A stretch of DNA of 64,000 nucleotides from Candidatus Thermofontivivens primus (lineage in GTDB: Bacteria > Sysuimicrobiota > Sysuimicrobiia > Sysuimicrobiales > Thermofontiviventaceae). Shown here piece by piece: positions 11,790 to 30,352 of this stretch. Each line of letters starts with the position of its first letter. The first letter of the stretch is position 1. A model generated the notes under the pieces. That model saw only the letters and a list, made by a program, of their open reading frames with translations. It ran no database searches and had not been told where the DNA came from. The position numbers and the translations under genes were made by a program. Location of the stretch: positions 20,390 through 84,389 of the forward strand of contig JAVKJW010000005.1 in NCBI GenBank assembly GCA_031458695.1, written 5' to 3'.

Positions 11790-12683
11790 TTGGCCCGGAT
11801 TCTTGTCACCGGTGCAGCGAATGTGGATCTCATTGGCGCTCCTGCTGACCCGCTTATCCCAGGAGTGTCCAACCCTGGGACAATCGCGCTGGCCCCAGGT
11901 GGAGCAGCCCGGAATGTGGCCGAGCACCTCTCCCAGATGGGCCATGATGTGCACCTGATCACGGCTGTAGGGGATGATCCCTTCGGGAGGTGGGTCCTCG
12001 ACGCGACCGCGCAGGCGGGCGTAGATGTTTCCAGCGCTTTCCAGTTTCCAGGTCAGCGCACAGGGCTTTACCTTGCGATCCTCGACGATGGGGAAGTCAC
12101 TGCAGCAGTCTCAGCCACAGGGATCGTCGAGGAGCTGACCCCTGAATCCCTCCAGACGCGCGCACCGTTGTTTTCTCAGGCAGACATCGTCGTAGCAGAT
12201 GCGAACCTCCTTCCTGAAGCTCTCTGGGAGGTGCATCGCCTTTCCAGGAACGCTCTCCTATGCCTCCTTCCTGTCTCCCCCCAAAAAGCCACCCGCCTCC
12301 GCGGGATCCTGGCAGAGGCTGATCTCGTCGTGGGGAGCGCCAAGGAGGGAGAGGTCCTTGCTGGCCGCCCGTGTGGATCTCGGGCGGATCTCATCCTTCT
12401 TGGGAGGGCGATCCTCTCCCATGGCCCGAAGGTCGTCGCCCTCACGATGGGTGGAGAGGGTGCGGTGGTGATCACAGAGGATGCATACCTCTGGGCTCCT
12501 GCTCCCAACGTCAAGGTTGTGGACCCCACGGGAGCAGGGGATGCCTTCGCGGCAGGGATCATCCATGGAAGAGCCCTTAGGCTTCCCCTCCGGGAGATGC
12601 TGGAAGGTGCCATGGACAGGGCAGCCATTGCCCTCAAAGCTCGTGGGAATCTCTGGAGGCATCTTCTAGGAGATTCATCCTGA
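11790..12683 (+). CDS. pfkB-family carbohydrate/nucleoside kinase, probable pseudouridine kinase.
   Basis: Ribokinase-like N-terminus (ARILVTGAANVDLIG) and GAGD motif near the C-terminus. Immediately upstream of a pseudouridine-5'-phosphate glycosidase gene. Start is uncertain: the track ORF starts at 11700, and a TTG at 11790 preceded by GGAGG is my preferred start. Confidence 0.7.
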   Translation: MARILVTGAANVDLIGAPADPLIPGVSNPGTIALAPGGAARNVAEHLSQMGHDVHLITAVGDDPFGRWVLDATAQAGVDVSSAFQFPGQRTGLYLAILDDGEVTAAVSATGIVEELTPESLQTRAPLFSQADIVVADANLLPEALWEVHRLSRNALLCLLPVSPQKATRLRGILAEADLVVGSAKEGEVLAGRPCGSRADLILLGRAILSHGPKVVALTMGGEGAVVITEDAYLWAPAPNVKVVDPTGAGDAFAAGIIHGRALRLPLREMLEGAMDRAAIALKARGNLWRHLLGDSS

Positions 12684-13692: not shown

Positions 13693-14481
13693 TTGACCGA
13701 AGGAGAGTTGCCCGTCATGAGGGAATTGCAGCAGGGTGAGTTGGGGCTTGGGGAACTCCTGCGCCGTGCCAGGGAGAGAAAAGGGCTCTCCTACGTCGAC
13801 CTGGAGGCGATGACCAGGATCCGGAGGACCTACCTGAAGGCCTTGGAAGAGGAGAAGTTCGAACTACTTCCTCCACCTATATTTGTGAAAGGCTACCTGA
13901 AGATCCTCGCCCAGGCACTGGATATCGAGGAAGGTTCACTCCTCCACATCTACGCGCAGATATCCCAGCCTCCTCCTCAGGCTGAATTCGCCAAGGTTCC
14001 CATTGAGCCGGCTACCCCTCCCTCCCCATGGCGCCGCGTTGTGGTCCTTGCTACCCTTTTCCTCCTCGTGGTCCTCAGTGCTGTTGGGTACTACGCCCTG
14101 ACAGAGCTTAGACAGTTCCTCGCCCCTCAGCCCCAGGTGGAAACTACCTACATCCAACCGGAGCCATCCCAGGAAGCTTTTGGGGGAGACCAGGGAGCTA
14201 TCCAGGAATCCCCGCCTCCAAAAGCGCCACCGGCTCAAAGCGGGGTGCGTGTCGTGCTGAAGGCGAGTGGCAGGTCCTGGGTGCGGGTCATCGCCGACAG
14301 GGAGAAGGTGTTTGAAGGGTTCCTGAAGAGCGGTGAAATGGGAAGCTGGGAGGCGTCGGAGGAGATCACCATCCGCGTTGGAAATGCTGGGGGTGTTGCG
14401 GTCTCTGTGAACGGCTCCACCTTTACTCCCATGGGAAAGCCAGGACAAGTCGTCGAGCAAACTTTCACCTCCTCTCCATAG
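13693..14481 (+). CDS. rodZ: RodZ-like cytoskeleton protein (XRE-type HTH, TM helix, C-terminal DUF4115-like domain).
   Basis: N-terminal HTH (LGELLRRARERKGLSYVDLEAMTRIRRTYLKALEE), one TM segment, Pro-rich linker, C-terminal beta domain. Confidence 0.7.
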   Translation: MTEGELPVMRELQQGELGLGELLRRARERKGLSYVDLEAMTRIRRTYLKALEEEKFELLPPPIFVKGYLKILAQALDIEEGSLLHIYAQISQPPPQAEFAKVPIEPATPPSPWRRVVVLATLFLLVVLSAVGYYALTELRQFLAPQPQVETTYIQPEPSQEAFGGDQGAIQESPPPKAPPAQSGVRVVLKASGRSWVRVIADREKVFEGFLKSGEMGSWEASEEITIRVGNAGGVAVSVNGSTFTPMGKPGQVVEQTFTSSP

Positions 14482-14511
14482 CCTGAATCCTTGTTGCAAG
14501 AATTACATTTT

Positions 14512-14540
14512 TCTTTTATACTAGAATCACTTGATTGTTT
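14512..14540 (+). promoter_or_regulatory. Sigma-A-type promoter upstream of cinA.
   Basis: TTGCAA, 17 bp, TATACT in an AT-rich intergenic stretch about 70 bp before the cinA start. Confidence 0.5.
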
Positions 14541-14609
14541 TTCGGCGAGGGTTGAGTAAAGGGAGAGCGGGGTCCTCCGTCCAAGTAGTTAGGGAAACAA
14601 GGCCTGAGG

Positions 14610-15875
14610 TTGGAGATGCGTGCTGAGATTATTTCCGTGGGGACCGAACTGCTCCTTGGCCAGATTGTGGACACCAATGCTACTTTCCTGGCCCAGGTCC
14701 TGGCCGAACTCGGGATTGACCTCTATTTTAAGACCACCGTGGGGGATAACTGGGCGCGTATCCAGCAGGTAACAAAAGAGGCGCTGTCCCGTTCCGATCT
14801 CCTCCTCTTTACGGGGGGGCTCGGCCCTACAGAGGACGATCTCACCAAGGAGGCAGTGGCAGACCTCCTGGGGTTAGAGCTGGTACGGGAGGAGAGCGTG
14901 GAAGCCCATATCCGCGCGTTGTTTGAACAGCGTCGTCGACCCCTGGTGGAATCCGTGCTCAAGCAAGCCCTCATCCCCAGGGGGGCCAAGATCATTCCAA
15001 ACCGGTGGGGAACCGCTCCCGGGTTGATCATCGAACACGGGGAGAAGATCCTGATCCTTCTCCCGGGGGTTCCCCGCGAGATGAAAGGGATGGTCCGGGA
15101 AGGGGTCATCCCTTATCTCCACTCCAGAGGGTTCACAGGGAAGGAAGTCATCCGTTCCCGCATCCTCCGGATCGCAGGGGCGGGAGAGGCATTGGTCGAA
15201 GCAAAGCTGGCCGGCCTTCTCTCGCGGGCAAACCCGACCATTGCCTTCTTGGCCCATCGGGGAGAGGTCCACGTCCGCATCACCGCGAAGGGGAACCCTG
15301 AGGAGGTAGCAGCAATGCTGGAGGCTGCGGAACAGGAAGTTCGCGGGCGTCTGGGCGAGCTTGTCTTTGGAATCGATGAGGAAAGCCTGGAGGAAGTCGT
15401 GGGCCGCCTCCTGCGTGGCCGTCGCCTAACCCTTGGGGTTGTCGAGTCGTGTACAGGTGGCCTCCTCTCCCACCGGTTGACCAACGTCCCCGGGAGCTCG
15501 GAATACCTTGTGGGAGCTGCGGTGCCCTACACGAAGCGGGCGAAGATGCAGCTTGGCCGGTTGAAGGAAGCACTTCTTAGAGAGGCGGGCGAGGTGAGCC
15601 CGGAGGTGAGCGTGGCCATGGCCAGGGAAGCGAGGGCGCTCTTGGGGAGCGATCTTGGGCTGTCAGTAACTGGGGTGGCTGGGCCCCAACGCGTAGGGGA
15701 ACTTCCTGTAGGAACTGTGTATATCGCCCTTGCCGCACCGGAAGGGGAAGAGGTAGAGGAGCACCGGTTTGGGGAAGAACCTGGGCGCGAGGGGATCAAG
15801 TGGCTCGCATCCCAGGCTGCGTTGAACTTGCTACGGCTTTACCTTCTTCGGGGTCTCAACGGGAGGAGATCGTGA
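14610..15875 (+). CDS. cinA: Competence/damage-inducible protein CinA (MoeA-like domain plus CinA C-terminal deamidase domain).
   Basis: 421 aa, MEMRAEIISVGTELLLGQIVDTNATFLA..., canonical CinA N-terminus. Sits upstream of recA as in Bacillus. Confidence 0.9.
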   Translation: MEMRAEIISVGTELLLGQIVDTNATFLAQVLAELGIDLYFKTTVGDNWARIQQVTKEALSRSDLLLFTGGLGPTEDDLTKEAVADLLGLELVREESVEAHIRALFEQRRRPLVESVLKQALIPRGAKIIPNRWGTAPGLIIEHGEKILILLPGVPREMKGMVREGVIPYLHSRGFTGKEVIRSRILRIAGAGEALVEAKLAGLLSRANPTIAFLAHRGEVHVRITAKGNPEEVAAMLEAAEQEVRGRLGELVFGIDEESLEEVVGRLLRGRRLTLGVVESCTGGLLSHRLTNVPGSSEYLVGAAVPYTKRAKMQLGRLKEALLREAGEVSPEVSVAMAREARALLGSDLGLSVTGVAGPQRVGELPVGTVYIALAAPEGEEVEEHRFGEEPGREGIKWLASQAALNLLRLYLLRGLNGRRS

Positions 15876-16465
15876 ACCGCGAGCAGCCACGTCTTCATCG
15901 CGTGTTCATCGCCGTGGAGCTTGATCATCAGCTCAGGGAGAAGGTTGTTCATATCCAGCAGGCCCTCAAGGAGTCAGGCGCGCACATGCGGTGGGTCCAG
16001 CCCCAGAACCTCCATTTTACCCTCCGGTTCTTGGGGGAACTCCCTTTGGCTGAGGTGGCCAAGGCAAAGATCGCCGTGCGCGAGGCAGGCCGCAGGGCCT
16101 CTCCATTCGCGATCCATCTCAAGGGGGTAGGGGCTTTCCCTAGCCTGGAGCGCCCCCAGGTGGTCTGGATCGGTGTTGGGGAGGGGGAGGCTGAACTCGC
16201 TAGGCTTGCTGAAGCCGTCAGCCTTTCCCTGGCGCGATACCACTTTCCCAAAGAGGACCGGCCGTTTACTGCCCACCTCACCCTTGGCAGGCTGAAGACG
16301 AGCAGGAACTGGGGGGATCTCGTCCGCCTCCTGCGCTCCCTGAAGGATGTGGATGTGGGCGATCAGCGCGTGGAGGCTATGGTGGTGATGGAGAGCCGCC
16401 TCACTCCGAGCGGGCCCATCTATACCCCTCTGGAGACAGTTCTCCTGGGGGAAAATGGGGCTTGA
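15872..16465 (+). CDS. thpR: RNA 2',3'-cyclic phosphodiesterase / 2'-5' RNA ligase (LigT/ThpR, 2H family).
   Basis: Two H-x-T/S-x motifs (HFTLRFLG, HLTLGRL). GTGA start overlaps the cinA stop, preceded by GGGAGGAG. Confidence 0.8.
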   Translation: MNREQPRLHRVFIAVELDHQLREKVVHIQQALKESGAHMRWVQPQNLHFTLRFLGELPLAEVAKAKIAVREAGRRASPFAIHLKGVGAFPSLERPQVVWIGVGEGEAELARLAEAVSLSLARYHFPKEDRPFTAHLTLGRLKTSRNWGDLVRLLRSLKDVDVGDQRVEAMVVMESRLTPSGPIYTPLETVLLGENGA

Positions 16466-16490
16466 CAATCAAACATATGTTTGGTATAGT
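16462..16490 (+). promoter_or_regulatory. recA promoter (TTGACA, 17 bp, TATAGT) with an embedded palindromic LexA (Cheo-type) box CAAACATATGTTTG.
   Basis: Seen directly: cTTGACAatCAAACATATGTTTGgTATAGT about 30 bp upstream of the recA ATG. The 14-mer is a perfect palindrome of the GAAC-N4-GTTC class (AAAC/GTTT variant). Confidence 0.7.
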
Positions 16491-16516
16491 GAGTTCAAGC
16501 AAAGAGGGAGGTAGTC

Positions 16517-17587
16517 ATGATGAATGAGCGTCAGCGTGCTCTCGAATTAGCCCTCACCCAGATTGAGAAGCAATTTGGAAAAGGATCGATCATGAAACTT
16601 GGCGAGGCAAGCGCCAAGCTCGCAGTGGAAGTGATCTCCACGGGTGCCCTTTCCCTCGATGCTGCCCTTGGCATCGGGGGAGTCCCGCGGGGCAGGGTGG
16701 TGGAGATCTACGGCCCTGAAGCGTCGGGGAAGACCACCTTGGGGTACCACATCATTGCTGAGGCCCAACGGGAAGGGGGAATTGCTGCTTTCATTGACGC
16801 GGAGCACGCGCTTGACCCCAACTATGCCCGGGCGATTGGCGTGGATGTCGACAACCTCTATATCTCCCAGCCCGACTCCGGGGAACAGGCCCTGGAGATC
16901 GCGGAGATGCTTGTGCGAAGCGGGGCTGTGGACGTGATTGTCATCGACTCAGTGGCCGCCCTCGTCCCCCGGGCTGAGCTCGATGGGGAGATGGGGGATG
17001 CTCACGTGGGGCTTCAGGCAAGACTCATGTCCCAGGCGCTCCGCAAACTCGTCGGCGCCATCAGCAAGTCCCGCACCACTGTCGTGTTCATCAACCAGGT
17101 GCGCGAGAAGATCGGGGTAATGTTTGGGAACCCCGAGACCACGACGGGAGGGCGCGCACTAAAATTCTACTCCTCTGTCCGCATGGAGATCCGAAGAACC
17201 GAGAGCCTGAAGTCTGGGGAGGATACAGTGGGCATGCGCGCCCGGGTGAAGGTCGTCAAGAACAAGCTGGCCCCGCCCTTCAAGGAAGGGGAGGTGGAGA
17301 TTCTCTACGGGAAGGGCATTTCCAAGGCAGGGAATATCCTCGACATGGCTGTCTCCACTGGGATCATCACCCGTAGCGGCACGTGGTACACCTATGGGGA
17401 CATCCGGTTGGGCCAAGGGAGGGAGAATGCCCGGGATTTCCTGGAGAGCAACCCTGAGCTTGCCCACGAGATCGAGGACAAAGTGCGGGAGAAACTGGGG
17501 CTTCCTAGGTTGAAGACGGTAGGGGAGGTTAAAGCATCCGACCCGGAGCAGGTACGCAAAGAGCCTCAGGCAAAAGTGAAGGCGTAA
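16517..17587 (+). CDS. recA: Recombinase RecA.
   Basis: 356 aa. Walker A GPESSGKTT, L1/L2 loops. Unmistakable RecA. Confidence 0.97.
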
Positions 17588-17670
17588 GCGGGCGAGCTCC
17601 CTCCTGAAGATAGGAGTACCACTCCACAGGATCTACTTCGGGTGTTGGTGGGGTACTTGGGAGAGCGACG

Positions 17671-18312
17671 ATGGTCACCGTTCGACGAATTCGTTCTCTT
17701 CCAGGCGCTGTGGAGAGGGCTATCGTGGAGGTGGAGGGAAAGGGGAGATTTTTGGTCTCAAGAGGGCTTGCGGCGGAGTTAGAAGTAGGGATGGCCCTCG
17801 ATGATCGGCTCCTTAGGAGGCTCGCGAGCGAGGACCTTTTGCACCGTGCGCTGCAAGTTGCTCTCCGGCTTTTACGCATCCGCCTGTACAGCAGGGCAGA
17901 AATGACCCTCCACCTTAAAAGGCGCGGATTCCCTCCCCAGATCGTGACGAATGTGATCCGCATGTTAGAGCAGCAGGGAGTTCTCAACGACCTCCAGTTT
18001 GCCAAGACTTGGATCACTGGGGTCATGGCGAGACGACCAGCGTGGCAGAAGAGGCTAGAAGCGGAGCTACGGGCAAAGGGGGTGGTGAAGGAGGTGATCG
18101 CACAAGCGCTCGATGAGGCCCTCTCCGGGACTACAGAAGTTGAGGTTGCGCGGGAAGTTGCCCTCCGTCGCCTCCGGGCGTATCATCGCTTTCCCCCGGA
18201 GGTGCAACAAAGGCGTTTGATCTCCTTCCTCCAGCGCAGGGGGTTCACTCCCGAGACAGCTACATCTGTGGTGAGGGAGCTTGTGCGGGAGGAAGGATCT
18301 CGTGAATCCTGA
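17671..18312 (+). CDS. recX: RecA regulator RecX.
   Basis: 213 aa, three-helix-repeat RecX family, directly downstream of recA. Confidence 0.85.
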   Translation: MVTVRRIRSLPGAVERAIVEVEGKGRFLVSRGLAAELEVGMALDDRLLRRLASEDLLHRALQVALRLLRIRLYSRAEMTLHLKRRGFPPQIVTNVIRMLEQQGVLNDLQFAKTWITGVMARRPAWQKRLEAELRAKGVVKEVIAQALDEALSGTTEVEVAREVALRRLRAYHRFPPEVQQRRLISFLQRRGFTPETATSVVRELVREEGSRES

Positions 18313-18321
18313 GGGCACGTC

Positions 18322-21300
18322 ATGGGGAAACGAAGACACCGCAACCTGGCTTCGAGGACGAGGAAAGGCGAAGAAAGTGAGGACCAACTCCCCTTGGGCC
18401 TCGAACCTCCCTCTGTAGAACTCCTCCATGCGGGGCTGCCGCATGAATCGAGAGTGGCGGAGGAGCCTGCTGAATTCCTGAAGGAGTTGGGGGAGCTCTC
18501 GGTCAGCAGGATCCTTGCTGACCTCAACGAAGAGCAAAGGCGCGCAGTCACCCACGGGGAAGGGCCTCTCCTGATTGTTGCAGGCGCAGGCACCGGAAAG
18601 ACCACGGTGATCACCCGCCGCATTGCCTATCTTATCGCGACGAAGCGGGCGAGACCACGGGAGATCCTGGCGCTCACCTTCACCGACAAGGCCGCCGCGG
18701 AGATGGAGGAGAGGGTAGACCTCCTCGTTCCCTATGGGTATGCGGACGTGTGGATTAGTACATTCCACGCGTTCGGAGACCGGATCCTTCGGGAGAATGC
18801 CCTGGAGATCGGCCTTAACCCAGACTTCCGCATCCTCTCCAAGGCGGAGCAGATCATCTTTTTCCGCGAGCACCTTTTCGACTTTCCATTGGACTACTAC
18901 CGCCCGCTCGGTGACCCTACCAAATATGTAGAGGCAATGATCACCCTATTCAGCCGGGCAAAAGATGAGGATGTGAGCCCGGAGGAGTACCTGACGTATG
19001 CAGAAAAACTCCTTGCAGAGGCGGATCCAACTGACCCTGAAGCAGTGCAAGAGGCTCGCAGGCAACTCGAGATTGCCCGTACGTACCAGCGCTACCAGGA
19101 ACTCCTGGCGAAGGAAGGCCTCGTGGACTTTGGAGATCTCATCACCCTCACGCTCAAGCTCTTCCGGGAGCGACCGCATGTCCTGCGGCGCTATCAAGAG
19201 CAGTTCAAGTATATTCTCGTCGATGAGTTCCAGGACACGAACTACGCCCAGTTCCAGCTCACCAAGCTCCTGGCCAGCCGACATGAGAACATCACCGTGG
19301 TGGGCGATGACGACCAGAGCATCTACAAGTTTAGGGGGGCTGCGATTAGCAACATCTTGAACTTTATGGATACCTATCCGCACGCCACCCAGATAGTCCT
19401 TACCAGGAACTATCGTTCTTCTCAGCTCATCCTCGATGCCGCCTATCGCTTGATCCGGTACAACGACCCCGATCGTCTGGAGGTCAAAAACCAGCTGGAC
19501 AAGCGCCTGTTCGCCGTCCATATGGAGGGACAGCCTGTTCGACACCTCCACTTTGATTCACTCTCCAGTGAAGCGGACGCGGTTGCAAGCATCATTGCGG
19601 AGAAGGTGGAGAAAGGTGCATACCGGTATAAGGATTTTGCCATCCTTGTTCGCTCCAACAACGACGCCGACCCTTTCCTGCGTTCCTTAAATATGAGGGG
19701 GATTCCCTTTCACTTCAGCGGGGGGCAGGGGCTCTACCAGCGGGAGGAGATCCGCCTGGTCATGGCTTTTCTCCGATCTCTCACTAACCCGTATGACAAC
19801 CTAAGCCTCTACCATCTGGGAAGTTCCCCCCTCTACCAGATTGACCCCGGGGACCTCGCCCGTTGCCTTGCCGTGGCGAATCGCAAAAACCGCTCCCTGG
19901 AGCACATCTTCGACCAGCTCCACGCGTACGAGGAGTTGGAGGAGGTCTCCCCAGAGAGCCGTGCTGCCATCGCCAAGCTCGTGGAGGACCTCAAAGAGAT
20001 GCGTTCCTTTGCTCAGCACCACGTGACCGGCCGGGTTCTCTACGAGTACCTCGTGAACCGGACAGGATATATCCGGCGCCTCGTTGCTTCAGGCAATGTG
20101 GAGGACGAGATCAAAGTCGCCAACCTGGCGAAGTTTTTCGACATTGTGGCCAAAGTAGCCCAGCTCCTGCGCTACGACAACGTGCACGCGTTCGTAGAGT
20201 ACATGGATAAGCTCATCGAAGCAGGGGATGATCCCACAGCTGCGGAGCTCTCCGGTCCCGACCTCGATGCAGTCCACGTCATGACCGTGCACAAGGCCAA
20301 AGGCCTGGAGTTTCCCGTGGTCTTCCTGGTGAGCTGTGTCTCCGATCGCTTCCCGACCCGGAACCGCAACGAGGGGTTGAGCCTGCCTGATCCTCTGATC
20401 AAGGACATCCTCCCCAGCGGCGATTTCCACCTCCAGGAGGAGCGGCGCCTGTTTTACGTGGGGATGACACGGGCCCAGAAAGAACTCTACTTGACAAGCG
20501 CGCGGGACTATGGGGGGGTTCGGCCACGGAAGGTAAGCCAGTTCGTCCTTGAAGCGATGGATATGCCCAAGGTGGATCCTGAGGTAGCAAAGGCCTCGGC
20601 GGTGGAAGCCATCGAACGGCATGCGCCGCCTGTGGTGGAGTCCTTGATGGGCCAGCCACTTCCTGAGGACAGTCCCCTCATCCTCAGCTTCCGGCAGATC
20701 GACGACTACGATACGTGCCCGCTCAAGTACAAATATATCCATATCCTTCGCGTCCCAGTGATGCGGGATCACCGGGTGGTTTACGGCGCAGCCCTCCACG
20801 AGGCCGTGCGAGAGTATAACCGGAGGAAAGCTCGGAACCAGCCGATGAGCCTGGAAGAGCTCATTTCGTACTTCGAGCGGGTCTGGACAAACGAAGGGTT
20901 CGTCAGCCGGGAACACGAGGATTACCGGTTTGAGGAAGGCCGCCAGGTCCTGCGACAGTTCTTCCTATTCGAAGAAGGTAGTGGGGTTACTCCCACCCTC
21001 GTGGAGATGCCCTTCAGCTTCCAGCTTGGGAAGACGCGTGTAAAGGGGAGGTGGGATCGGGTAGACGTCCACGGGGACGAGGTCGTCATTGTGGACTTCA
21101 AGACGAGCGATGTCCGCGACACGAAGGAGGCCAATAGGAGGACCAGGGAGAGCCTCCAGTTGGCCATTTACGCACTCGCCTACAAGGAGGTCTATGGACG
21201 CCTCCCCTCTTGGGTAGAGCTCCGTTTTTTGGGGAGTCAGCAGGTACTGGTGGGGCGTGCAGAGCCGCATGAGGAGTATATCCGCGAAGCGATAGAGGTG

Positions 21301-21420
21301 ATCGAGAAGGTAGCTAAGGGGATTCGGGCACAGCGCTTTGTGGCCACGCCAGACTTCTACCGGGCGTGCAGGTTTTGTGCTTTCAACCAGATTTGTCCTT
21401 ACACCGCAGCAGGGGAGTGA
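18322..21420 (+). CDS. UvrD/PcrA-type superfamily-1 helicase fused to a C-terminal Cas4/AddB-like PD-(D/E)XK nuclease with a 4-Cys Fe-S cluster.
   Basis: 1032 aa. N-terminal helicase motifs (AGAGTGKTTV, DEFQDTNYAQ, VGDDDQSIYKFRGA, QNYRS, TVHKAKGLEF). C-terminal nuclease (C-x...RWDRVD...IVDFKT...QLAIYALAY...CRFCAFNQIC). Starts 9 nt after the recX stop. Confidence 0.85.
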   Translation: MGKRRHRNLASRTRKGEESEDQLPLGLEPPSVELLHAGLPHESRVAEEPAEFLKELGELSVSRILADLNEEQRRAVTHGEGPLLIVAGAGTGKTTVITRRIAYLIATKRARPREILALTFTDKAAAEMEERVDLLVPYGYADVWISTFHAFGDRILRENALEIGLNPDFRILSKAEQIIFFREHLFDFPLDYYRPLGDPTKYVEAMITLFSRAKDEDVSPEEYLTYAEKLLAEADPTDPEAVQEARRQLEIARTYQRYQELLAKEGLVDFGDLITLTLKLFRERPHVLRRYQEQFKYILVDEFQDTNYAQFQLTKLLASRHENITVVGDDDQSIYKFRGAAISNILNFMDTYPHATQIVLTRNYRSSQLILDAAYRLIRYNDPDRLEVKNQLDKRLFAVHMEGQPVRHLHFDSLSSEADAVASIIAEKVEKGAYRYKDFAILVRSNNDADPFLRSLNMRGIPFHFSGGQGLYQREEIRLVMAFLRSLTNPYDNLSLYHLGSSPLYQIDPGDLARCLAVANRKNRSLEHIFDQLHAYEELEEVSPESRAAIAKLVEDLKEMRSFAQHHVTGRVLYEYLVNRTGYIRRLVASGNVEDEIKVANLAKFFDIVAKVAQLLRYDNVHAFVEYMDKLIEAGDDPTAAELSGPDLDAVHVMTVHKAKGLEFPVVFLVSCVSDRFPTRNRNEGLSLPDPLIKDILPSGDFHLQEERRLFYVGMTRAQKELYLTSARDYGGVRPRKVSQFVLEAMDMPKVDPEVAKASAVEAIERHAPPVVESLMGQPLPEDSPLILSFRQIDDYDTCPLKYKYIHILRVPVMRDHRVVYGAALHEAVREYNRRKARNQPMSLEELISYFERVWTNEGFVSREHEDYRFEEGRQVLRQFFLFEEGSGVTPTLVEMPFSFQLGKTRVKGRWDRVDVHGDEVVIVDFKTSDVRDTKEANRRTRESLQLAIYALAYKEVYGRLPSWVELRFLGSQQVLVGRAEPHEEYIREAIEVIEKVAKGIRAQRFVATPDFYRACRFCAFNQICPYTAAGE

Positions 21421-21872
21421 GCATATATCCCATTTCGTATAGAGAAAACGCCATTCCTACTCTGCGTGGGTATGCTTTCCGCTTCGCGAAGGAGGGGGTG
21501 CAATCGGGTGGGGTCATCGTTAGCCCGTGGAGGGAGGAGTTGATCCGAGCGATTCAAGAGAGGCGGATCCTCCATCTCACCTATCAAAAGAAAGGGGGAT
21601 CTGTGGAGAAGTACGTTATCGCTCCATGGGATTTGGTCCCAGGAGGTGAGACAGGTGAGGAGCTCCTTGTGGCCTTTGCCTATAACCGGAACGATTTCCG
21701 CTCGTTCCGCTTGAGCAGGATCCTGAGCATCCGGGAGCTAGGAGAGGAATTCGACCCACGGGAGTTCTATCCGAGGCTCGCTACGTGGCCTCCTCGTTGG
21801 CATGTCCTGCGCGCGTGGCCCCTTCAGGAAGGCGAATATCCCGCGGGGAAGGGAGGCCTGGGAAGGGGATGA
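21417..21872 (+). CDS. Stand-alone WYL-domain protein (no HTH).
   Basis: About 151 aa. ILHLTYQKKGGSVEKYVIAPWDLV...LLVAFAYNRNDFRSFRLSRILSIRELGEEFDP matches the WYL domain signature. GTGA overlap with the helicase-nuclease stop and ATGA overlap with the next gene. Confidence 0.7.
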   Translation: MSIYPISYRENAIPTLRGYAFRFAKEGVQSGGVIVSPWREELIRAIQERRILHLTYQKKGGSVEKYVIAPWDLVPGGETGEELLVAFAYNRNDFRSFRLSRILSIRELGEEFDPREFYPRLATWPPRWHVLRAWPLQEGEYPAGKGGLGRG

Positions 21873-22981
21873 TCAAGTTGCTCCACCTCTCAGATGTCCA
21901 TCTGGGGGCGCGGTTCCAGATGCTGGGTGAGCGAGGACGAGAACATCGTCGCCAGCTGCAGGAGACCTTCGCTAGGGCCATTGGGATAGCGTGCGAGGAG
22001 CCCGTGGACCTTGTCCTCATCGCTGGCGACCTGTTCGATTCCCCCCACCAGTCAGAATCCACCATCTCCTTTGTGCGCGAACAGTTTCGCCGCCTGGAGG
22101 CGAGGGGAATCCCGTTGTGTCTGATTGCCGGGAACCATGACCCTTTCGAAGAGGGGGGCGTCTACGCGGTCGGACGATTCGAGCAGTGCAGCAACGTCAC
22201 CCTGTTTGGGACCACCCCGGGAAGCAAGGTATTCTCCCAGCTCGACCTCACTGTGTTCGGGAGCTCCCCATCCCCTGGCTCTGGCCGCAGCCCGCTCGCA
22301 GGCTGGAAGGTAGAACGGCAAACGCGCTTTGCTGTGGGCTTGGTCCATGGGAGCATCTACCGTTCAGGGCAAGTGGAAGGCCCAGCGACAATCCACCCCG
22401 AGGAAATCCGGGGTCTCGGGCTCGACTATCTTGCGCTTGGCGACTGGCACTCTTGCCAGCGGGTCCTGGGGCCGCCCACCACTGCTTGGTACTCAGGTTC
22501 CCCTGAGTTCTTAAGCCTCGACCAGGAGGGGGCGGGCCATGTTCTTTTGGTGACACTGGAGGAGCCTGGCTCTGTGCACGTCCGGCCTGTTCGTGTGGGT
22601 CGAAGGTCCTACAAAAAAATTGAACTCGAGATCTCCGCCCTCCCTGTGGAGGAGATCAAGGCCCGGATCCTCCAGGAGGCAGATCCTGATCTCATCATGG
22701 ACGTGATCCTCAAGGGGTTCATCCAGCCCGGGATCTCTATTTCAGCAGCGGAACTGGAAGAGGATCTGGGTGGGCATTTCTTCCGCTTGCGTGTGCGCAA
22801 CGAGAGTTCCCTTCGGCTGGAGGACTTGGACGAGCAGGACTTCCCCGAAGGAACCGTTCTGGGGAGGTTCGTTCGCTTAATGCGAAAGAGAATGGAGGAA
22901 CTAGACCCTGCAGAGCGTCCCCTCCTTGAGGAGGCACTCCAGCTTGGGGTGGGACTTTTGCAGGGGAGGGAGGTCCTCTAG
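21869..22981 (+). CDS. SbcD/Mre11-family metallophosphoesterase nuclease (YhaO-like).
   Basis: MIKLLHLSDVHLG...DLVLIAGDLFD...GNHD calcineurin-like motifs. Translationally coupled on both sides. Confidence 0.85.
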   Translation: MIKLLHLSDVHLGARFQMLGERGREHRRQLQETFARAIGIACEEPVDLVLIAGDLFDSPHQSESTISFVREQFRRLEARGIPLCLIAGNHDPFEEGGVYAVGRFEQCSNVTLFGTTPGSKVFSQLDLTVFGSSPSPGSGRSPLAGWKVERQTRFAVGLVHGSIYRSGQVEGPATIHPEEIRGLGLDYLALGDWHSCQRVLGPPTTAWYSGSPEFLSLDQEGAGHVLLVTLEEPGSVHVRPVRVGRRSYKKIELEISALPVEEIKARILQEADPDLIMDVILKGFIQPGISISAAELEEDLGGHFFRLRVRNESSLRLEDLDEQDFPEGTVLGRFVRLMRKRMEELDPAERPLLEEALQLGVGLLQGREVL

Positions 22982-25146
22982 TGCGCCTTCGTCGCCTTCG
23001 AGTACGACGCTTTCGTCGCCTGCGGGGCTTGGAGATCACCTTCCATCCAGGTCTCAACGTCATCGTCGGCCCGAACGAGGCAGGCAAGTCCACTCTCCGC
23101 GAGGCGATCATCATGGCTCTGTATGGGAACGCCGCGACGACCTCCCAGGCAATCCGGGAAAGCACCCGCTCCTGGGGCTCGGATCGTCCTGCGGTCCTTG
23201 AGCTGGAATTTGAGGCGGACGGGGAGGTCTACACCCTGGGCAAGGATTTCCACGGACGCAAGGTCTTCTTGCGCGACAGCAAGGGGAACAACTGGGAGGG
23301 ACACGCGCGGATCCAGAGGGAGATCGGGACTCTTCTTGGGTTTCCCAACGAAAATCTCTATCGGTCCACTGCGCATGTGGCCCAGGCAGAGCTTGACCGG
23401 CTATCCACTGACACCCCGGATATCGCCAAGGAGCTTTCCAGGATCATCACCGGTGGAGGACAGGATGCGAACGTGGTAACGGTCCTTCACCGGCTTGAGC
23501 AAGCGATCGAAGCCCAACGGAAGGGGCTCCAGCGGTACGCCAAAGATCCGGGGCCTATTAAGCGACTGGAGAACATTGTGACTTCCCTCGAGGGGCGGCG
23601 GGCGGAACTTCTCCAGAAGGCCCAACAGGCCATCCAGAGCCGCAAGGAGATTATCGAGGTGAGCAAAGAGCTTGAACGGGCTGCAACCACACTGACCATC
23701 AAAGACAACCTTCTCAAGGTGAACCAAGAGCTCATGCGCGTTGAGAACCGCCTGCAGGAACTCAAAACACAGGAATCTCAGTTGGGAGACCGGATAAGGA
23801 AAATTCACCAAAACATCCTCAAACTTTCACAGATCAAAGAGGAGATTGCTGCGCTCATTGGGGAGGGAGAGGTTCCAGACGAGGAGACGATGCACAAGCT
23901 CCGGGAAACCTACGCTTTTTATTCCGGCGCAGCATCGCGTGCCGAACGCCTAGCCGAAGAAGTAAGGGCAATGGAGGGAAGCCTCGCTCAGTTCCCGCGA
24001 TTCGCCGGGCGGGCCGTTTCCGCTCTTCTCACCCTCGCGACAGTGAGCCTCATCGCTAGCATGGTCCTCTCCGCGTGGAGGGGGATCGTGTGGGGGGGTC
24101 TTACGGCCCTGCCAGGGGTCCTCTTTCTCCTTTTCGCTTACAATTTCTGGAAAATGGAGGAGGCGCGACGCATCGAGGAAGATCGGCTGGAAGCCCGGCG
24201 AAAAGAGCTGGAGGTCGCGCGCAGGGATGCTGGCAAGTTCGAGGAGGAAATGCGCCAATTGCTCAAGGAACTGAGGTGCAATAGCCTGGAGGAGGCCACT
24301 CGCCGGTATGAGCATTACCAACGCCTTGTCGGGGAGCAAAGAGCCCTTGCGCAGTCCCTCCAAGACCTCCAGGGGGATCAGACGGTAGAGACCTTGCAAG
24401 AACAGTATCAGGATATCCAGCGGGAGATCTTCGTGCGAACGGAATACTTGAAGAACCCAGAGGTAGCGGCGAAGCGCCTTCTCCCCCTCGAAGTGCAACA
24501 CCTAGAGGAAGAGGTGGAACGTCTCAGAACCCAGGTGCGTCAGCTCGAGCAGAGGAAGCAACGGCTTGAGTGGGAGATTGAGCATTACTCCCCCGCCCTC
24601 GAGGAGCTCAAGGAGGTTGAGGAGCAGCTCGACGAGAGCAAGGAGCGCCTCCAGCTGGAGAGGAATCGCCTGCGCGTCTACGAAATGGCCTATGAAGTGC
24701 TACGGGAAGCGCACCAGCAGGTTATGGTCCCTGCCCGGGAGGTGGTCAGCTCCCTGGCAGGGGAATACCTCAAGGTCCTCACGGGAGGACGCTACCATCG
24801 CGTGCGCATGGCCGAGGATTCCCTCCAGGTGGAGGTCTGGGTGGACGAGGCGCAACGGTGGATCGCCCCCAAAGAGCCAGAATTTAGTCGTGGGGCCATC
24901 GATCAAGTCTACCTTGCGACCCGCCTCGCGCTCGTCGAAGTCCTTGCCCAGGGGAAATCCCCGCCCCTTGTGCTGGACGACCCCTTCGTCCACTTCGACG
25001 AGGAGCGGCTCCAGGCTGCCATAGACCTGATCAGGCGGCTTTCCTCCCGTTACCAAGTGCTGCTGTTCACGTGTAGGCGAGAGTACAGCAAGTATGCCGA
25101 CCACCTCATTCACATTGACACCCTCTCGGGGATAGGGATACAATAG
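22981..25146 (+). CDS. SbcC/SMC-like ATPase with long coiled coil and two internal transmembrane helices (YhaN/SbcE-like).
   Basis: 721 aa. N-terminal Walker A (GPNEAGKST), C-terminal signature/Walker B (LVLDDPFVHFD), heptad-rich middle. Hydrophobic pair ...AVSALLTLATVSLIASMVLSAW...LTALPGVLFLLFAYNFW... in the middle of the coiled coil. GTG start overlaps the sbcD-like stop. Confidence 0.8.
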   Translation: MRLRRLRVRRFRRLRGLEITFHPGLNVIVGPNEAGKSTLREAIIMALYGNAATTSQAIRESTRSWGSDRPAVLELEFEADGEVYTLGKDFHGRKVFLRDSKGNNWEGHARIQREIGTLLGFPNENLYRSTAHVAQAELDRLSTDTPDIAKELSRIITGGGQDANVVTVLHRLEQAIEAQRKGLQRYAKDPGPIKRLENIVTSLEGRRAELLQKAQQAIQSRKEIIEVSKELERAATTLTIKDNLLKVNQELMRVENRLQELKTQESQLGDRIRKIHQNILKLSQIKEEIAALIGEGEVPDEETMHKLRETYAFYSGAASRAERLAEEVRAMEGSLAQFPRFAGRAVSALLTLATVSLIASMVLSAWRGIVWGGLTALPGVLFLLFAYNFWKMEEARRIEEDRLEARRKELEVARRDAGKFEEEMRQLLKELRCNSLEEATRRYEHYQRLVGEQRALAQSLQDLQGDQTVETLQEQYQDIQREIFVRTEYLKNPEVAAKRLLPLEVQHLEEEVERLRTQVRQLEQRKQRLEWEIEHYSPALEELKEVEEQLDESKERLQLERNRLRVYEMAYEVLREAHQQVMVPAREVVSSLAGEYLKVLTGGRYHRVRMAEDSLQVEVWVDEAQRWIAPKEPEFSRGAIDQVYLATRLALVEVLAQGKSPPLVLDDPFVHFDEERLQAAIDLIRRLSSRYQVLLFTCRREYSKYADHLIHIDTLSGIGIQ

Positions 25147-25383
25147 CCTAAGGTGCACCGGACTCGTCTTCCCTGAGGGCCTGTGGGAATCCCGCCAGGG
25201 AGCTGCAGGAGAACTGCACTGGACGATGCACCAGCAAGGAAATCCTGAGACCCCCTTGCTTGAGAGTGAGGTGGGCTGTCAGGAGCGACGTACCTGAAGG
25301 GGCCCGCACATCTCTGGGCCTATCAAAATCTCCAGGGGGCTCCCCTGGGGTACACAAGGAGGTGAACAGCCATCGACCCCGCG

Positions 25384-26916
25384 TTGGTTTCCTACGCGAT
25401 CGCGGCCGGGCTGGGGTTGGTTGGATTCCTCCTTGGATACCTCCTGCGCAGGTTCGTCGCCGAGGCGAAGATTAAATCAGCGGAAGAAGCTGCCCGCCGG
25501 ATACTCGAGGATGCAAAGAAGGAAGCGGAGGCAAAGAAACGTGAAGCGATCCTCGAAGCGAAGGATGAGGCATACCGGATCAAGCGGGAAGCTGAACGGG
25601 AGATCCGCGAGCAACGGGCAGAGATTCAGCGTCTCGAGCGACGTATTGTGCAACGCGAGGAATCCTTGGACCGCAAGGCGGAAGCCTTGGAGCGTCGAGA
25701 GCGTGCCCTCATCCAGAGAGAGCAGGAGGTTTCAAAGGCCAGGGAGGAGGTAGAAGCGCTTCGGAGGGAGCACCGCCTTGAGCTTGAGCGCATCGCAGGT
25801 CTAACCTCAGAAGAGGCCAAAGAGCAACTGCTGCGCGAGATCGAGGCGGAGGTTCGCCACGAGGCGGCCCAGCTCATCAAGAAAGTGGAGGAGCAGGCAA
25901 GGGCAGAAGCCGACCGCCTTGCCAAGGAGATCATTGCCCTTGCCATTCAGCGGTGTGCTGCCGACCACACCGCCGAGGTTACTGTATCGGTGGTCCCCCT
26001 GCCCAACGAGGATATGAAGGGAAGGATCATCGGTCGTGAGGGGCGGAACATTCGTACTCTGGAGACCCTCACAGGTGTGGACCTGATCATCGACGATACC
26101 CCAGAAGCGGTGACCATTTCCTCCTTTGATCCCATCCGCCGGGAGATCGCCAAGATCACCTTGGAAAAACTCATTGCCGATGGGCGGATCCACCCAGCGC
26201 GCATCGAGGAGATGGTGGAGAAGGCGCAGCGGGAACTCGAGGCCAGGATCCGGGAGGAAGGGGAGCGTGCCGCATTTGAGGCGGGGGTCCACGGCTTGCA
26301 TCCCGAGGAGATCAAGTTGCTTGGGCGCCTCCGGTTCCGGTACAGCTACGGTCAGAACCTCCTCCAGCACTCCGTGGAGGTCGCGCTCCTGGCCGGGCTC
26401 ATGGCCTCCCACCTGGGTGCTAATGTAGCCCTGGCAAAACGCGCAGGGCTGCTCCACGACATTGGGAAGGCCCTCACCCACGAGGTAGAAGGGACACACA
26501 GCGCCATCGGGATAGACATTGCCAAACGCTACCACGAGCCCCCGGAGGTTCTGAACGCCATCGCCTACCACCATGGCGAGGAGGAGGCCAAGTGCATCGA
26601 GGCGATCCTCGTCGCTGCTGCTGATGCCATCTCTGCCAGCAGGCCAGGCGCCAGGAAGGAGACTGTGGAGATGTACCTGAAACGCCTGGAGAACCTGGAA
26701 CGCTTGGCGAGTTCCTTCGATGGTGTGGAGAAGGCATACGCTATCCAGGCTGGTCGGGAGGTCCGGGTGATTGTCAGACCCCAGGAGGTGGATGACAGCG
26801 GCGCAGTTCTTCTGGCACGCCAGATCGCCAAGAAGATCGAAGAAGAACTGGAGTACCCCGGTCAGATCAAAGTTACCGTCCTGAGGGAGACGCGTGTGGT
26901 GGAGTACGCAAAGTGA
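25384..26916 (+). CDS. rny: Ribonuclease Y (TM anchor, coiled coil, KH and HD domains).
   Basis: 510 aa. End-to-end similarity to RNase Y ([17 protein letters not shown] motif, HD domain). TTG start. Confidence 0.9.
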
Positions 26917-26938
26917 AACCGGCCGGGGGATCCTCTCT

Positions 26939-27739
26939 ATGAAGGTACTCATGGTTGGCGACATCACCGGCAGGCCCGGGCGAAGGGTTCTTATGCGCTT
27001 CCTCCCCCACCTTCGCCAGAAGTTTGAGGTAGATTTCGTCATCGCCAACGGGGAGAACGCCGCAGGAGGAACCGGGTTGACCAAGGCAACAGTAGAGGAG
27101 ATCTTTGCATGTGGCGTTGACGTCATCACAGGGGGGAACCATACTTGGCACCACCGCGAGATCTACGAAGTCCTCAATAGCCACCCTAGGGTCTTGCGGC
27201 CGGCAAACTACCCTCCTGGGGCCCCTGGACGAGGATCCCTCGTTGCGCAAGGCCCCAGGGGGCAGCGGGTTGGCGTCGTCAACCTCCAAGGCCGGGTGTT
27301 TATGCAAGAACTCGAGGATCCGTTCCGGGTAGGGCTAGAGGAGGTGGAAAAACTCCGGGAGGAGACTCCCCTGATCTTTGTGGATATCCACGCCGAGGCC
27401 ACTTCGGAGAAGATGGCCCTCGCCTGGTTCCTGGATGGCAAGGTCTCTGCCGTCCTTGGCACGCACACCCATGTACAGACGGCTGACGAACGCATCCTTC
27501 CAGGGGGGACTGCTTACATCACCGACGTTGGGATGACAGGGCCGCGGGATGGAATCATCGGTATGGAGAGGGAGGAAGTCATCCAGAGGTTCCTCACCCA
27601 GCTCCCCGTGCGCTTCCAGGTTGCTAAGGGAACAGCCCAGCTTGATGCCGTTCTCGTTGAGGTTGACGAGCAAACTGGGAAGGCTCTTGCCATCCAGCGG
27701 ATCCATCTGGTCGAAGGGTTCGGGGAAATGGACCCGTAA
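26939..27739 (+). CDS. ymdB: YmdB-family 2',3'-cyclic-nucleotide phosphodiesterase (metallophosphoesterase).
   Basis: MKVLMVGDITGRPGRR..., TIGR00282-like. Follows rny as in Bacillus. Confidence 0.85.
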   Translation: MKVLMVGDITGRPGRRVLMRFLPHLRQKFEVDFVIANGENAAGGTGLTKATVEEIFACGVDVITGGNHTWHHREIYEVLNSHPRVLRPANYPPGAPGRGSLVAQGPRGQRVGVVNLQGRVFMQELEDPFRVGLEEVEKLREETPLIFVDIHAEATSEKMALAWFLDGKVSAVLGTHTHVQTADERILPGGTAYITDVGMTGPRDGIIGMEREEVIQRFLTQLPVRFQVAKGTAQLDAVLVEVDEQTGKALAIQRIHLVEGFGEMDP

Positions 27740-27833
27740 AGAGCGAACTCTTTGTGAATTTTGCCGGGGACCTCAGGATTTCCGAGAAGCCTCCCGCAAG
27801 CGGTGAAAGAAGTTCGCAGAGGTACTCAAGGAG

Positions 27834-28664
27834 ATGCGTGTGGACCTTCACACCCACACCACTGCCTCAGATGGGCTCCTTTCCCCACGAGCCTTGGTGG
27901 AGGAGGCTGCCCGCCTGGGTGTGGCGATCCTCGCAATCACGGATCACGATACGACCGACGGGATCGAGGAAGCACTCGAGGTAGGCAAGGAGCTGCGCGT
28001 AGAGGTTATCCCAGGAGTCGAGATCAATACAGACGTTCAGGGCGCGGAGATCCACGTCCTGGGATACTACATCGACCACAGAAGCGAGTGGTTTCAAGGG
28101 ACCTTGCGTCGCCTCCGAGAGAGCCGCCTCGACCGTGCTACCAGGATGCTCGCCAAGCTGGCCAATTTGGGGATCCGCCTGGATCTCCAGCGAGTCCTCG
28201 CCCTTGCGCATGGGGGATCCGTCGGGAGGCCCCACCTCGCCAGGGCGATGGTAGAAGCTGGCTACGTCTCCACTCCTGAGGAGGCATTCAGGCTGTACCT
28301 TGGACGAGGGGGCCCCGCGTACGTGGAACGGGAGAGATTTACCCCTGAGGAGGCGGTACAGGTCATCCTCCGCGCGGGCGGAGTTCCTGTGCTTGCACAC
28401 CCGGGTCTGAGCAACCGGGATGGACTTGTGCCAGATCTCGTCTCCGCTGGCCTCATGGGGATCGAGGTCTACTATCCCGAACACTCCCCTGCGCAAGTGC
28501 AGCACTACCTGGCCCTGGCGAAGAAGCTTGGTCTCCTCACCACAGGGGGTACCGACTTTCACGGAGGCGATCTTGCCCCACGGGTCCAGGTTGGGAGCGT
28601 AGAAGTACCTCTGGAGGTAGTTACATTGCTTAAGGAAAAGGTGAGACTGGTCCGAGGCTCATAG
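27834..28664 (+). CDS. PHP-domain phosphoesterase (TrpH/YciV-like).
   Basis: MRVDLHTHTTASDGLLSP...ITDHDT..., PHP fold, 276 aa. Confidence 0.85.
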   Translation: MRVDLHTHTTASDGLLSPRALVEEAARLGVAILAITDHDTTDGIEEALEVGKELRVEVIPGVEINTDVQGAEIHVLGYYIDHRSEWFQGTLRRLRESRLDRATRMLAKLANLGIRLDLQRVLALAHGGSVGRPHLARAMVEAGYVSTPEEAFRLYLGRGGPAYVERERFTPEEAVQVILRAGGVPVLAHPGLSNRDGLVPDLVSAGLMGIEVYYPEHSPAQVQHYLALAKKLGLLTTGGTDFHGGDLAPRVQVGSVEVPLEVVTLLKEKVRLVRGS

Positions 28665-28687
28665 ATCTCGAACAGGGAGGCTTAAGG

Positions 28688-30345: not shown

Positions 30346-30352
30346 AACGGCT

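Follow-up and report, generated by a model that had tools for sequence, protein, structure and literature searches.

A predicted SOS-regulated operon links a single-chain helicase-nuclease and a YhaO/YhaN-type pair to recA-recX in the phylum CSP1-3

We analyzed a 64,000 nt stretch of DNA from Candidatus Thermofontivivens primus (assembly GCA_031458695.1, contig JAVKJW010000005.1, positions 20,390-84,389, forward strand; hereafter the window), in which recA and recX are followed by genes for a helicase-nuclease (HEL), a WYL-only protein, a YhaO (SbcF)-type phosphoesterase and a YhaN (SbcE)-type ATPase. From the sequence features of this locus and its relatives, we consider it probable that the locus is an SOS-induced end-processing operon for DNA-break repair. 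Throughout the phylum of the source organism, the stable core of the locus is recX-HEL, usually with recA in front and the YhaO/YhaN-type pair behind.

This phylum is CSP1-3, or Candidatus Sysuimicrobiota, and carries the label Armatimonadota at NCBI. The name Sysuimicrobiota was given to the uncultured phylum CSP1-3 in PMC11604079, a study of 112 MAGs (metagenome-assembled genomes). The HEL of the window is identical to a protein deposited as 'MAG: Armatimonadota bacterium', and the titles of the syntenic loci include Armatimonadetes bacterium CSP1-3, Candidatus Sysuimicrobiota, Ca. Geohabitans, Calidihabitans and Fervidifonticultor. The initial annotation of the window had assumed a host among the Firmicutes (Clostridia), which these assignments correct.

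Conserved gene order and a LexA-type operator

We scanned one genome per GTDB species with an alignment of the HEL nuclease domain (A2), which returned 68 species-level loci of the same synteny (L007-L074). Ten window proteins were compared with all loci by tblastn, and the loci were then classified per species. The gene directly 5′ of HEL is recX in all evaluable loci (56/56). The gene 5′ of recX is recA in 41 of the 47 loci that could be evaluated and not recA in the other six. On the 3′ side of HEL, the phosphoesterase/ATPase pair is present in 45/60 evaluable loci, RmuC takes the place of the pair in 11/60, and rny follows directly in 4/60. The median gaps of the recX-HEL, HEL-phosphoesterase and phosphoesterase-ATPase junctions are all -4 nt, and at least 118 nt separate the ATPase gene from rny in all 33 loci measured. 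In the window, the ATG of HEL lies 9 nt after the recX stop codon, the next three junctions overlap as GTGA (21417-21420), ATGA (21869-21872) and TAGTG (22979-22983), and the gap to rny is 238 nt. The genes, this spacing and the palindrome in the recA promoter all lie where the initial annotation had placed them, and the four genes from HEL to the ATPase, estimated there at ~6.8 kb, measure 6825 bp.

The four genes had also been thought to travel together as an inserted cassette, and the synteny table rejects such a unit of inheritance. The WYL gene is found in three lineages only, a quarter of the species have RmuC or nothing in place of the pair, and HEL is tied to recX. Outside the phylum, HEL and the pair each occur alone. 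HEL homologues of 52-62% identity were found in Gemmatimonadota, NC10/Methylomirabilales, Rokubacteria and one Thermodesulfobacteriota MAG, and none of recA, recX, the YhaO/YhaN-type pair and rny was detected nearby by tblastn. On a Gemmatimonadota chromosome (L075), HEL is followed by RmuC (11025-12101) and a separate 743 aa helicase of the PcrA/UvrD type. Stand-alone two-gene modules of Metallophos and AAA_27 proteins are present in Cohnella (Firmicutes) and on two other out-of-phylum contigs.

The HEL-phosphoesterase junction is an insertion hot spot. A HAD hydrolase gene (PF00702, E 2e-28) lies there in 7 of the 45 loci with the pair (L056, L058, L061, L062, L066, L069 and L073; e.g. L069, 10905-11603), and an N6_N4 methyltransferase gene and a gene for an unknown 303 aa protein occupy the slot in L006 (13101-15097). 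The replacement by RmuC is confined to one CSP1-3 clade (L047, 10935-12095, and 10 other loci). In several relatives, recA itself is split by a LAGLIDADG_2 homing-endonuclease intein inserted near residue 204, giving proteins of ~712-723 aa (L004/L005, 7175-9346; L006, 7165-9321; also L007, L018, L026 and L049); the recA of the window has no intein.

In the promoter scan, the recA site TTGACA-17-TATAGT matched at 11 of 12 positions, and its spacer holds the perfect palindrome CAAACATATGTTTG. The canonical Cheo box has the half-sites GAAC/GTTC. The palindrome had been described as a perfect box of the Cheo type; it is perfect, but its half-sites are AAAC/GTTT, and the box is the symmetric variant CAAAC..GTTTG of a phylum-wide operator consensus, CGAAC-N4-GTTTG. 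When all loci were scanned with the pattern [CT][GA]AAC-N4-GTT[TC][GA], all those that include the sequence upstream of recA showed the box 47-108 nt 5′ of this gene, with ~3 stray matches in ~1.2 Mb of loci. The -35 element, the box and the -10 element align across the relatives. Two further loose matches to the pattern occur in the window, TGAACAGGTGTTTG at 3759-3772 and CAAACGGCAGTTTA at 43932-43945.

In the six species in which recA is not adjacent, the box precedes recX instead. In five of these loci, which were aligned (L058, L061, L062, L069 and L073), it is flanked by TTGAGG and TAnCAT and lies ~30 nt 5′ of recX, directly 3′ of an unrelated dehydrogenase-like gene; the sixth, L051, also has the box upstream of recX. 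Since the recX-HEL-...-ATPase unit keeps the operator even without recA, there is strong comparative evidence that the whole unit is under SOS control. A box also precedes lexA in the window, from which LexA autoregulation is predicted.

The scans detected no terminator-like site after recA or recX or inside the unit. The recA-recX spacer shows no more structure than shuffled sequence does (z 0.71), and no Rfam match was obtained across 14000-28500. The sole other promoter-like site that matched 11/12 lies just 5′ of rny (25115-25144) and is probably the rny promoter and the 3′ boundary of the unit. The initial annotation had proposed a damage-regulated polycistronic unit transcribed from the recA promoter. 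The conservation of the operator, the gene order and the 4 nt overlaps throughout the phylum strengthens this proposal considerably. LexA regulation of the unit by the predicted operator is thus well supported in silico. Judged from these comparisons, the operon recA-recX-HEL-variable slot-YhaO-like-YhaN-like, with its LexA-type operator, is ancestral to CSP1-3.

The encoded proteins and the surrounding genes

Profile searches of the four proteins, which had been suggested along with the initial annotation, matched all the expected families (UvrD_C and PDDEXK_1/Cas4, WYL, Metallophos, and AAA_23). In HEL, all motifs of a superfamily 1A (SF1A) helicase are readable, namely AGAGTGKT, DEFQDTN, GDDDQSIYKFRGA, NYRS, TVHKAKGLEF and VGMTRA, and the N- and C-terminal UvrD helicase domains and PDDEXK_1 are joined on one chain in all 120 homologues listed. 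The best match of the motor is PcrA (E 3e-111), followed by UvrD and AdnB (7e-55), and AddA is more distant. HEL scores far below the NCBIfam equivalog cut-offs of PcrA (TIGR01073, 510 vs 911), UvrD (368 vs 1144), Rep, AddA (addA_Gpos, 252.8 vs 707.65) and RecB (168.8 vs 696). At one position of motif III, QSIYKFRGA in HEL, PcrA and UvrD have Trp, and HEL and an archaeal plasmid homologue have Phe. The Trp of AdnB at this position, Trp325, is called the 'ratchet pawl' (PMC13000450).

In alignment A2 of the nuclease domain, the residues C67, C284, C287, C293, D180/D183, D193-F-K195 and Q214..Y218 are invariant, corresponding to the Fe-S ligand pattern C...CxxCx5C and to the D..D, DFK and Q...Y motifs. 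Foldseek matched the nuclease-domain model best to the nuclease domain of AdnA (E 1.6e-11, TMq 0.58), then to ACE1 (a Cas4-family protein), RecE, AddA/AddB and Cas4. The model indicates that the HEL nuclease has a RecB-family fold with an Fe-S subdomain and is AdnA/AddB-like. In AdnAB, AdnB drives 3′-to-5′ translocation on the 3′ strand, and the nuclease domain of AdnA carries an Fe-S cluster and cuts the displaced 5′ strand (PMC13000450). As far as sequence and model can tell, HEL would join in one chain the lead-motor type and the 5′-strand-nuclease type of such two-subunit enzymes. Because its motor is AdnB-like and its nuclease AdnA-like, HEL could act on the 5′ strand in resection, so that a 3′ tail remains.

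Helicase-nuclease chains of this kind are not new, although the initial annotation had considered the system possibly undescribed. In a computational study, Hudaiberdiev et al., 2017 (PMC5704561), described UvrD-Cas4-like fusions and reported them to be monophyletic and to form the largest pfam12705 branch. They were found with Type III restriction-modification (R-M) genes, sometimes together with WYL-helix-turn-helix (HTH) regulators, with Dcm-Vsr or alone, and a defence or ancillary role was predicted (PMC5704561). A literature search brought up no experimental study of the family. One member, encoded on an archaeal plasmid, is collinear with HEL over the full length (31% identity in the helicase, 26% in the nuclease) and lies in a defence-like neighbourhood near csa3 and helicase/HSP90-like genes.

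The ATPase matches AAA_27 (PF13514) with 43.8 bits against a gathering cut-off of 22, and Rad50 heads were matched at both its ends (residues 1-145 and 552-718), on either side of a long coiled coil. A central CxxC zinc hook is absent in all 41 ATPase homologues, and nearly all of them show a hydropathy peak at residues ~330-395; the hydrophobic centre of the window protein spans ~341-387 (24001-24141). SbcE (YhaN) lacks a zinc hook, and its central domain is unique, insoluble and in part hydrophobic (PMC2811018). Since these are the features that define SbcE, the ATPase is assigned to the YhaN (SbcE) type. In line with this, several out-of-phylum homologues are named YhaN in JGI and UniRef, and PF13514 is listed on nearly all homologues. 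A YhaN-domain protein of Cohnella candidum (P0221) shares 37% identity with the C-terminal head (1e-12) and 27% with the N-terminal head (3e-10), and the head motifs SRG..Q.YLA.R.AL, LDD.FVHFDE and LFTC are common to the window ATPase and this Firmicute YhaN.

The phosphoesterase is 25% identical over 278 aa (E 1e-16) to the Cohnella protein at the yhaO position, and canonical Mre11/SbcD chains match it over the first ~100 residues only. Its motifs read DVH, GDLFD, GNHD, H and GDWH, of which I-IV are conserved. Canonical SbcCD and Rad50 scores were missed (TIGR00618 sbcc, 35.8 vs 478.5; TIGR00619 sbcd, 70.9 vs 77.65; NF003034 for Rad50, 131.5 vs a cut-off of 700). The absent hook and these scores below the family cut-offs do not fit a canonical SbcCD or Mre11-Rad50 pair. 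The likeness to yhaO-yhaN, put forward as an analogy in the initial annotation, goes further: AAA_27, the lack of a zinc hook, the hydrophobic centre and the similarity to Firmicute YhaO and YhaN mark the pair as homologous to B. subtilis yhaO-yhaN and predict the YhaO/YhaN type. SbcE and SbcF act in double-strand-break repair (PMC2811018), and the B. subtilis yhaO-yhaN-yhaM operon belongs to the LexA regulon (PMC2731908).

RmuC, which replaces the pair in some species, is a protein of ~390 aa here (PF02646, E 2e-57). It has a transmembrane helix, coiled coils and a PD-(D/E)XK nuclease domain (PMC1189080). Because the two are exchanged at the same operon position, the swap suggests that RmuC and the YhaO/YhaN-type pair may be functionally equivalent.

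The start of the WYL open reading frame (ORF) is ambiguous. GTG at 21417 gives the overlap with HEL, and conservation begins at GTG 21498, with AAGGAGG just 5′ of it. Pfam matched PF13280 only, with no HTH domain in the protein. Relatives are few: HMMER against 1.84 billion representatives returned 2 at E<=1e-10 and 29 at E<=1e-3, a word-index search returned two clusters, and a scan of JGI metagenomes returned one locus. The closest relative outside the window's own lineage (P0243, 105 aa, 47% identity) is encoded between the 3′ end of a HEL gene (64% identity) and a phosphoesterase gene (47%). A WYL gene occupies the HEL-phosphoesterase slot in three lineages only (the window, L002/L102 and L098), and in most species this junction is a 4 nt overlap without space for a gene. 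The slot is variable, and the WYL gene is an infrequent, lineage-restricted accessory in it. Two small homologues (P0245 and P0246) are encoded on contigs of 1-3 kb, too short to be informative, on which HEL and the phosphoesterase gene are absent. The AlphaFold model of the WYL protein, built from 3 sequences, was unusable (pLDDT 40).

The positions of the genes and sites are given in Table 1. The block has a GC content of 0.56-0.61 and a third-position value (GC3) of 0.63-0.72, which do not distinguish it from its neighbours, and its composition is not foreign-looking. A gene for a PHP-domain protein and selA-selB follow ymdB (27834-32299) in an order that is syntenic in L002, L004 and L006, and conservation in CSP1-3 extends over the entire block from cinA to selB. 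Further downstream (~12-26 kb), miaB-like, mutS, mutL, hflX and lexA genes are grouped at 37167-47845 in a Firmicute-like order in this non-Firmicute phylum; mutS, mutL and lexA were confirmed by Pfam, and miaB and hflX were assigned by eye. An ORF beside lexA (48842-49741, minus strand, 299 aa) encodes ~6 tandem coiled-coil repeats of ~22 aa (RLAEAQARTEERVGRLEEA...) followed by a non-repetitive C-terminal domain, and its Pfam matches are weak coiled-coil ones only.

Table 1. Genes and sites of the locus, in window coordinates
Feature	Position	Strand	Evidence
cinA	14610-15875	+	Pfam CinA, MoCF_biosynth
LigT/ThpR-type phosphoesterase	ends 16465	+	Pfam LigT_PEase
recA promoter	16462-16490	+	-35 TTGACA 16462-16467; predicted operator CAAACATATGTTTG 16470-16483; -10 TATAGT 16485-16490
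recA	16517-17587	+	Pfam RecA, E 4.6e-140
recX	17671-18312	+	Pfam RecX_HTH1/2/3
HEL (helicase-nuclease), 1032 aa	18322-21420	+	UvrD-helicase E 2.8e-86, UvrD_C 2.5e-55, PDDEXK_1 1.4e-32, Cas_Cas4 1.2e-4
HEL sub-regions	helicase ~18523-20502, nuclease ~20683-21399	+	
WYL-only ORF	21417-21872 (151 aa) or from GTG 21498 (124 aa)	+	PF13280, E 2.6e-11
YhaO (SbcF)-type phosphoesterase, 370 aa	21869-22981	+	Pfam Metallophos
YhaN (SbcE)-type ATPase, 721 aa	22981-25146	+	Pfam AAA_23/AAA_27/SMC_N
Promoter-like site TTGACA-18-TACAAT in the 3′ end of the ATPase gene	25115-25144	+	promoter scan, 11/12
rny	25384-26916	+	Pfam RNase_Y_N, HD
ymdB	after rny	+	Pfam YmdB
lexA	47231-47845	-	LexA_DNA_bind E 4.9e-29, Peptidase_S24 E 7.5e-37
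LexA-type box CGAACAAATGTTTG	47906-47919	-	61-74 nt 5′ of the lexA start codon

A model for DNA-end processing and its alternatives

In the model that we favour, DNA damage would activate RecA, LexA would cleave itself, and the whole unit would be transcribed. The YhaO/YhaN-type complex, which is Mre11/Rad50-like, or RmuC would open or clean blocked or hairpin ends or secondary structures, possibly at the membrane; the coiled coil of the YhaN type would end in a hydrophobic apex that is probably inserted into the membrane and replaces the zinc hook. HEL would next resect the end, with its PcrA/AdnB-like 3′-to-5′ motor tracking the 3′ strand and its AdnA/AddB-like Fe-S nuclease cutting the displaced 5′ strand, so as to provide a 3′ tail for RecA. 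RecA would then load, and RecX, whose translation is coupled to that of HEL, would limit the RecA filament. The WYL-only protein would be an optional accessory, probably binding single-stranded DNA and tuning HEL. The YhaO/YhaN-type pair would be substituted in one clade by RmuC, a PD-(D/E)XK nuclease with coiled coils and a membrane anchor.

A bolder form of this model is possible but rather doubtful. HEL would be a self-sufficient, Chi-independent, single-chain enzyme for the resection of double-strand breaks, with a motor of the AdnB type and a 5′-strand Fe-S nuclease of the AdnA type. CSP1-3 would then rely for presynapsis mainly on HEL, RecX and a membrane-anchored coiled-coil nuclease, for which YhaO/YhaN and RmuC would be interchangeable, instead of on AddAB/RecBCD. 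The UvrD-Cas4 family would by extension consist of end-resection enzymes rather than defence accessories.

Several points weigh against an end-processing operon. The argument is comparative throughout, with the operon structure and the operator established in silico and the enzymology deduced. Weaker promoter-like sites (9/12) lie inside recA and recX at 17340 and 18158. The initial annotation saw no promoter other than that of recA, which holds in so far as the only other 11/12 site precedes rny, but not with regard to these weaker sites. In the ATPase, Walker B has DD where Rad50 has DE. Motif V of the phosphoesterase (residues ~191-194) is GDWH in all 52 phylum members, as opposed to GHxH elsewhere (Cohnella YhaO and two other outgroup homologues), a predicted invariant His-to-Asp change at a metal-ligand position. 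The nuclease-domain model of HEL is only of moderate quality (mean pLDDT 66), with a good core and low confidence in the end segments that bear the Cys residues. HEL has a closer link with recX than with the nuclease pair, and its role within CSP1-3 may be the main one or an auxiliary one. PcrA and UvrD strip RecA from DNA, and the resemblance of the HEL motor to them would make an anti-recombinase role fit equally well, and the UvrD-Cas4 family has been inferred to be defence-related elsewhere (PMC5704561).

Accordingly, HEL could act mainly on the RecA filament as an anti-recombinase with RecX, its translocase clearing RecA from single-stranded DNA and its nuclease degrading toxic intermediates such as D-loops and reversed forks, and the YhaO/YhaN-type pair or RmuC would then be only loosely associated neighbours in the SOS transcript. 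We consider this unlikely. It agrees with the invariant adjacency and median 4 nt overlap of recX and HEL, which are kept when recA is elsewhere or the pair is absent, and with a motor closest to PcrA/UvrD; B. subtilis PcrA disrupts RecA filaments in vitro (PMC7385302). However, stripping a filament would not need an invariant Fe-S nuclease of the RecB family with a fold nearest to the 5′-strand nuclease of AdnAB. Moreover, HEL occurs without recX outside the phylum, and its downstream partners are always nucleases for DNA ends or DNA structures, namely YhaO/YhaN or RmuC.

It is very improbable that the locus is a defence-type system that became fixed beside recA, akin to the co-opted defence module considered in the initial annotation, and attacks invading or replicating phage DNA upon SOS induction, with a helicase-nuclease, a WYL sensor and an SMC-like ATPase plus nuclease as the effector. 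Nothing in CSP1-3 points to defence. The neighbourhood is a housekeeping one with phylum-wide synteny and native composition, unlike defence islands, the WYL gene is missing in almost all members, and the pair is of the YhaN/YhaO repair type. Searches of 2.9 million viral contigs and 72,556 plasmids returned no close relatives; the viral contigs yielded only Cas4-like proteins at 21-27% identity and the plasmids matches of at most 26%, on which a mobile-element origin is rejected for CSP1-3. What has suggested defence comes largely from elsewhere: UvrD-Cas4 fusions are mostly found beside Type III R-M or Dcm-Vsr and sometimes with WYL-HTH (PMC5704561), and the archaeal plasmid homologue (26-31% identity) lies near csa3 and helicase/HSP90-like genes. 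Within the phylum, one relative has the methyltransferase and the unknown gene in the slot. PADLOC gave GajB (UvrD) and LmuB/GajA-P-loop matches among the four proteins, but these reflect generic UvrD and SMC-head similarity, and the partner components GajA TOPRIM, LmuA and LmuC were not matched among them. An assignment to Gabija or Lamassu was rejected on these grounds.

We give as little credence to adjacency without function, in which the genes just happen to lie between recX and rny, have constitutive promoters of their own and leave the LexA box to control recA (and recX) only, because the 4 nt overlaps are conserved at three successive junctions in most species, the box is kept before recX-HEL after recA has moved away, and no terminator-like site lies inside the unit, although the 9/12 sites in recA and recX and the unrelated insertions tolerated in the HEL-phosphoesterase slot (a HAD hydrolase, an R-M-like pair) would fit it.

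With an SOS-induced end-processing operon as the favoured reading, the building blocks are already known, the UvrD-Cas4 fusions computationally only and the SbcEF module as a LexA-regulated one. What appears to be new is that both are united in a recA-recX operon across a whole phylum, as well as the interchange of the YhaO/YhaN-type pair with RmuC, the occasional WYL-only accessory and a defined LexA operator for CSP1-3. The role of the UvrD-Cas4 family has hitherto been guessed from its defence-type neighbours. Of the contexts known to date, that of a HEL fixed behind recA-recX and a conserved LexA-type operator speaks most clearly for recombinational repair. The context also offers a simple biochemical model with one motor and one 5′-strand nuclease. 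In addition, the poorly understood SbcE/SbcF (YhaN/YhaO) module is extended beyond Firmicutes, the swap with RmuC hints at equivalent jobs of two coiled-coil nuclease systems with hydrophobic segments, and the operator CGAAC-N4-GTTTG is predicted for LexA of an uncultured phylum. The main value lies in a testable repair hypothesis for a very large helicase-nuclease family.

Comparison with known systems

The WYL protein of the window shares PF13280 with PafBC, BrxR/CapW and WYL1 and weakly matches PafBC chains. Unlike these proteins, it lacks HTH and WCX domains and belongs to a tiny family of ~105-150 aa proteins. Its gene lies between those of a helicase-nuclease and a nuclease, not as a divergent regulator gene of the PafBC or BrxR/CapW type.

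HEL has a motor like that of housekeeping PcrA/UvrD, but it adds a nuclease domain and scores below the equivalog level. With the UvrD-Cas4-like fusions it shares the architecture of a UvrD-type SF1 helicase and a C-terminal four-Cys Cas4-like nuclease in one chain. The published contexts of these fusions are Type III R-M, Dcm-Vsr or none, whereas HEL lies between recA-recX and YhaO-YhaN/rny. Compared with AdnAB and AddAB, the motor of HEL resembles AdnB and AddA, its nuclease fold is nearest to AdnA, followed by AddB and AddA, and its Fe-S ligands resemble the AddB/AdnA pattern (C ... CxxCx5C). In contrast to these enzymes, HEL is one polypeptide with one motor and one nuclease, lacking a partner subunit, a second nuclease and the dead-helicase domain that scans for Chi. 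In the locus, we found no second helicase-nuclease gene that could encode a partner subunit as in AddAB, AdnAB or RecBCD. In B. subtilis, AddAB is followed by sbcD-sbcC, which we take to be a gene order parallel to HEL and the pair.

In 11 species and one Gemmatimonadota genome, RmuC takes the pair's position behind HEL. Like the YhaN-type ATPase, it ties a hydrophobic or transmembrane segment and a coiled coil to nuclease activity. It differs in its unrelated fold, being a single-chain PD-(D/E)XK nuclease without an ABC ATPase, and is not present in the window.

The closest parallel to the pair is B. subtilis yhaO-yhaN. In both, the gene for an Mre11/SbcD-fold phosphoesterase lies directly 5′ of that for an SMC/Rad50-like ATPase, and the ATPase has AAA_27 and a hydrophobic central domain without a CxxC hook. 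The window ATPase (~720 aa) is shorter than the Cohnella protein (1107 aa) and than B. subtilis YhaN, which has 963 aa. The window proteins share little identity with Firmicute members (25-37% over the heads), and motif V of the phosphoesterase is GDWH, unlike that of Firmicute YhaO. A yhaM-like gene was not seen in the window locus, where rny comes next. The window pair lacks a separate promoter; its genes follow recA-recX-HEL and are coupled to them in translation. B. subtilis yhaONM is a known member of the LexA regulon, and the window pair is predicted to be one as well.

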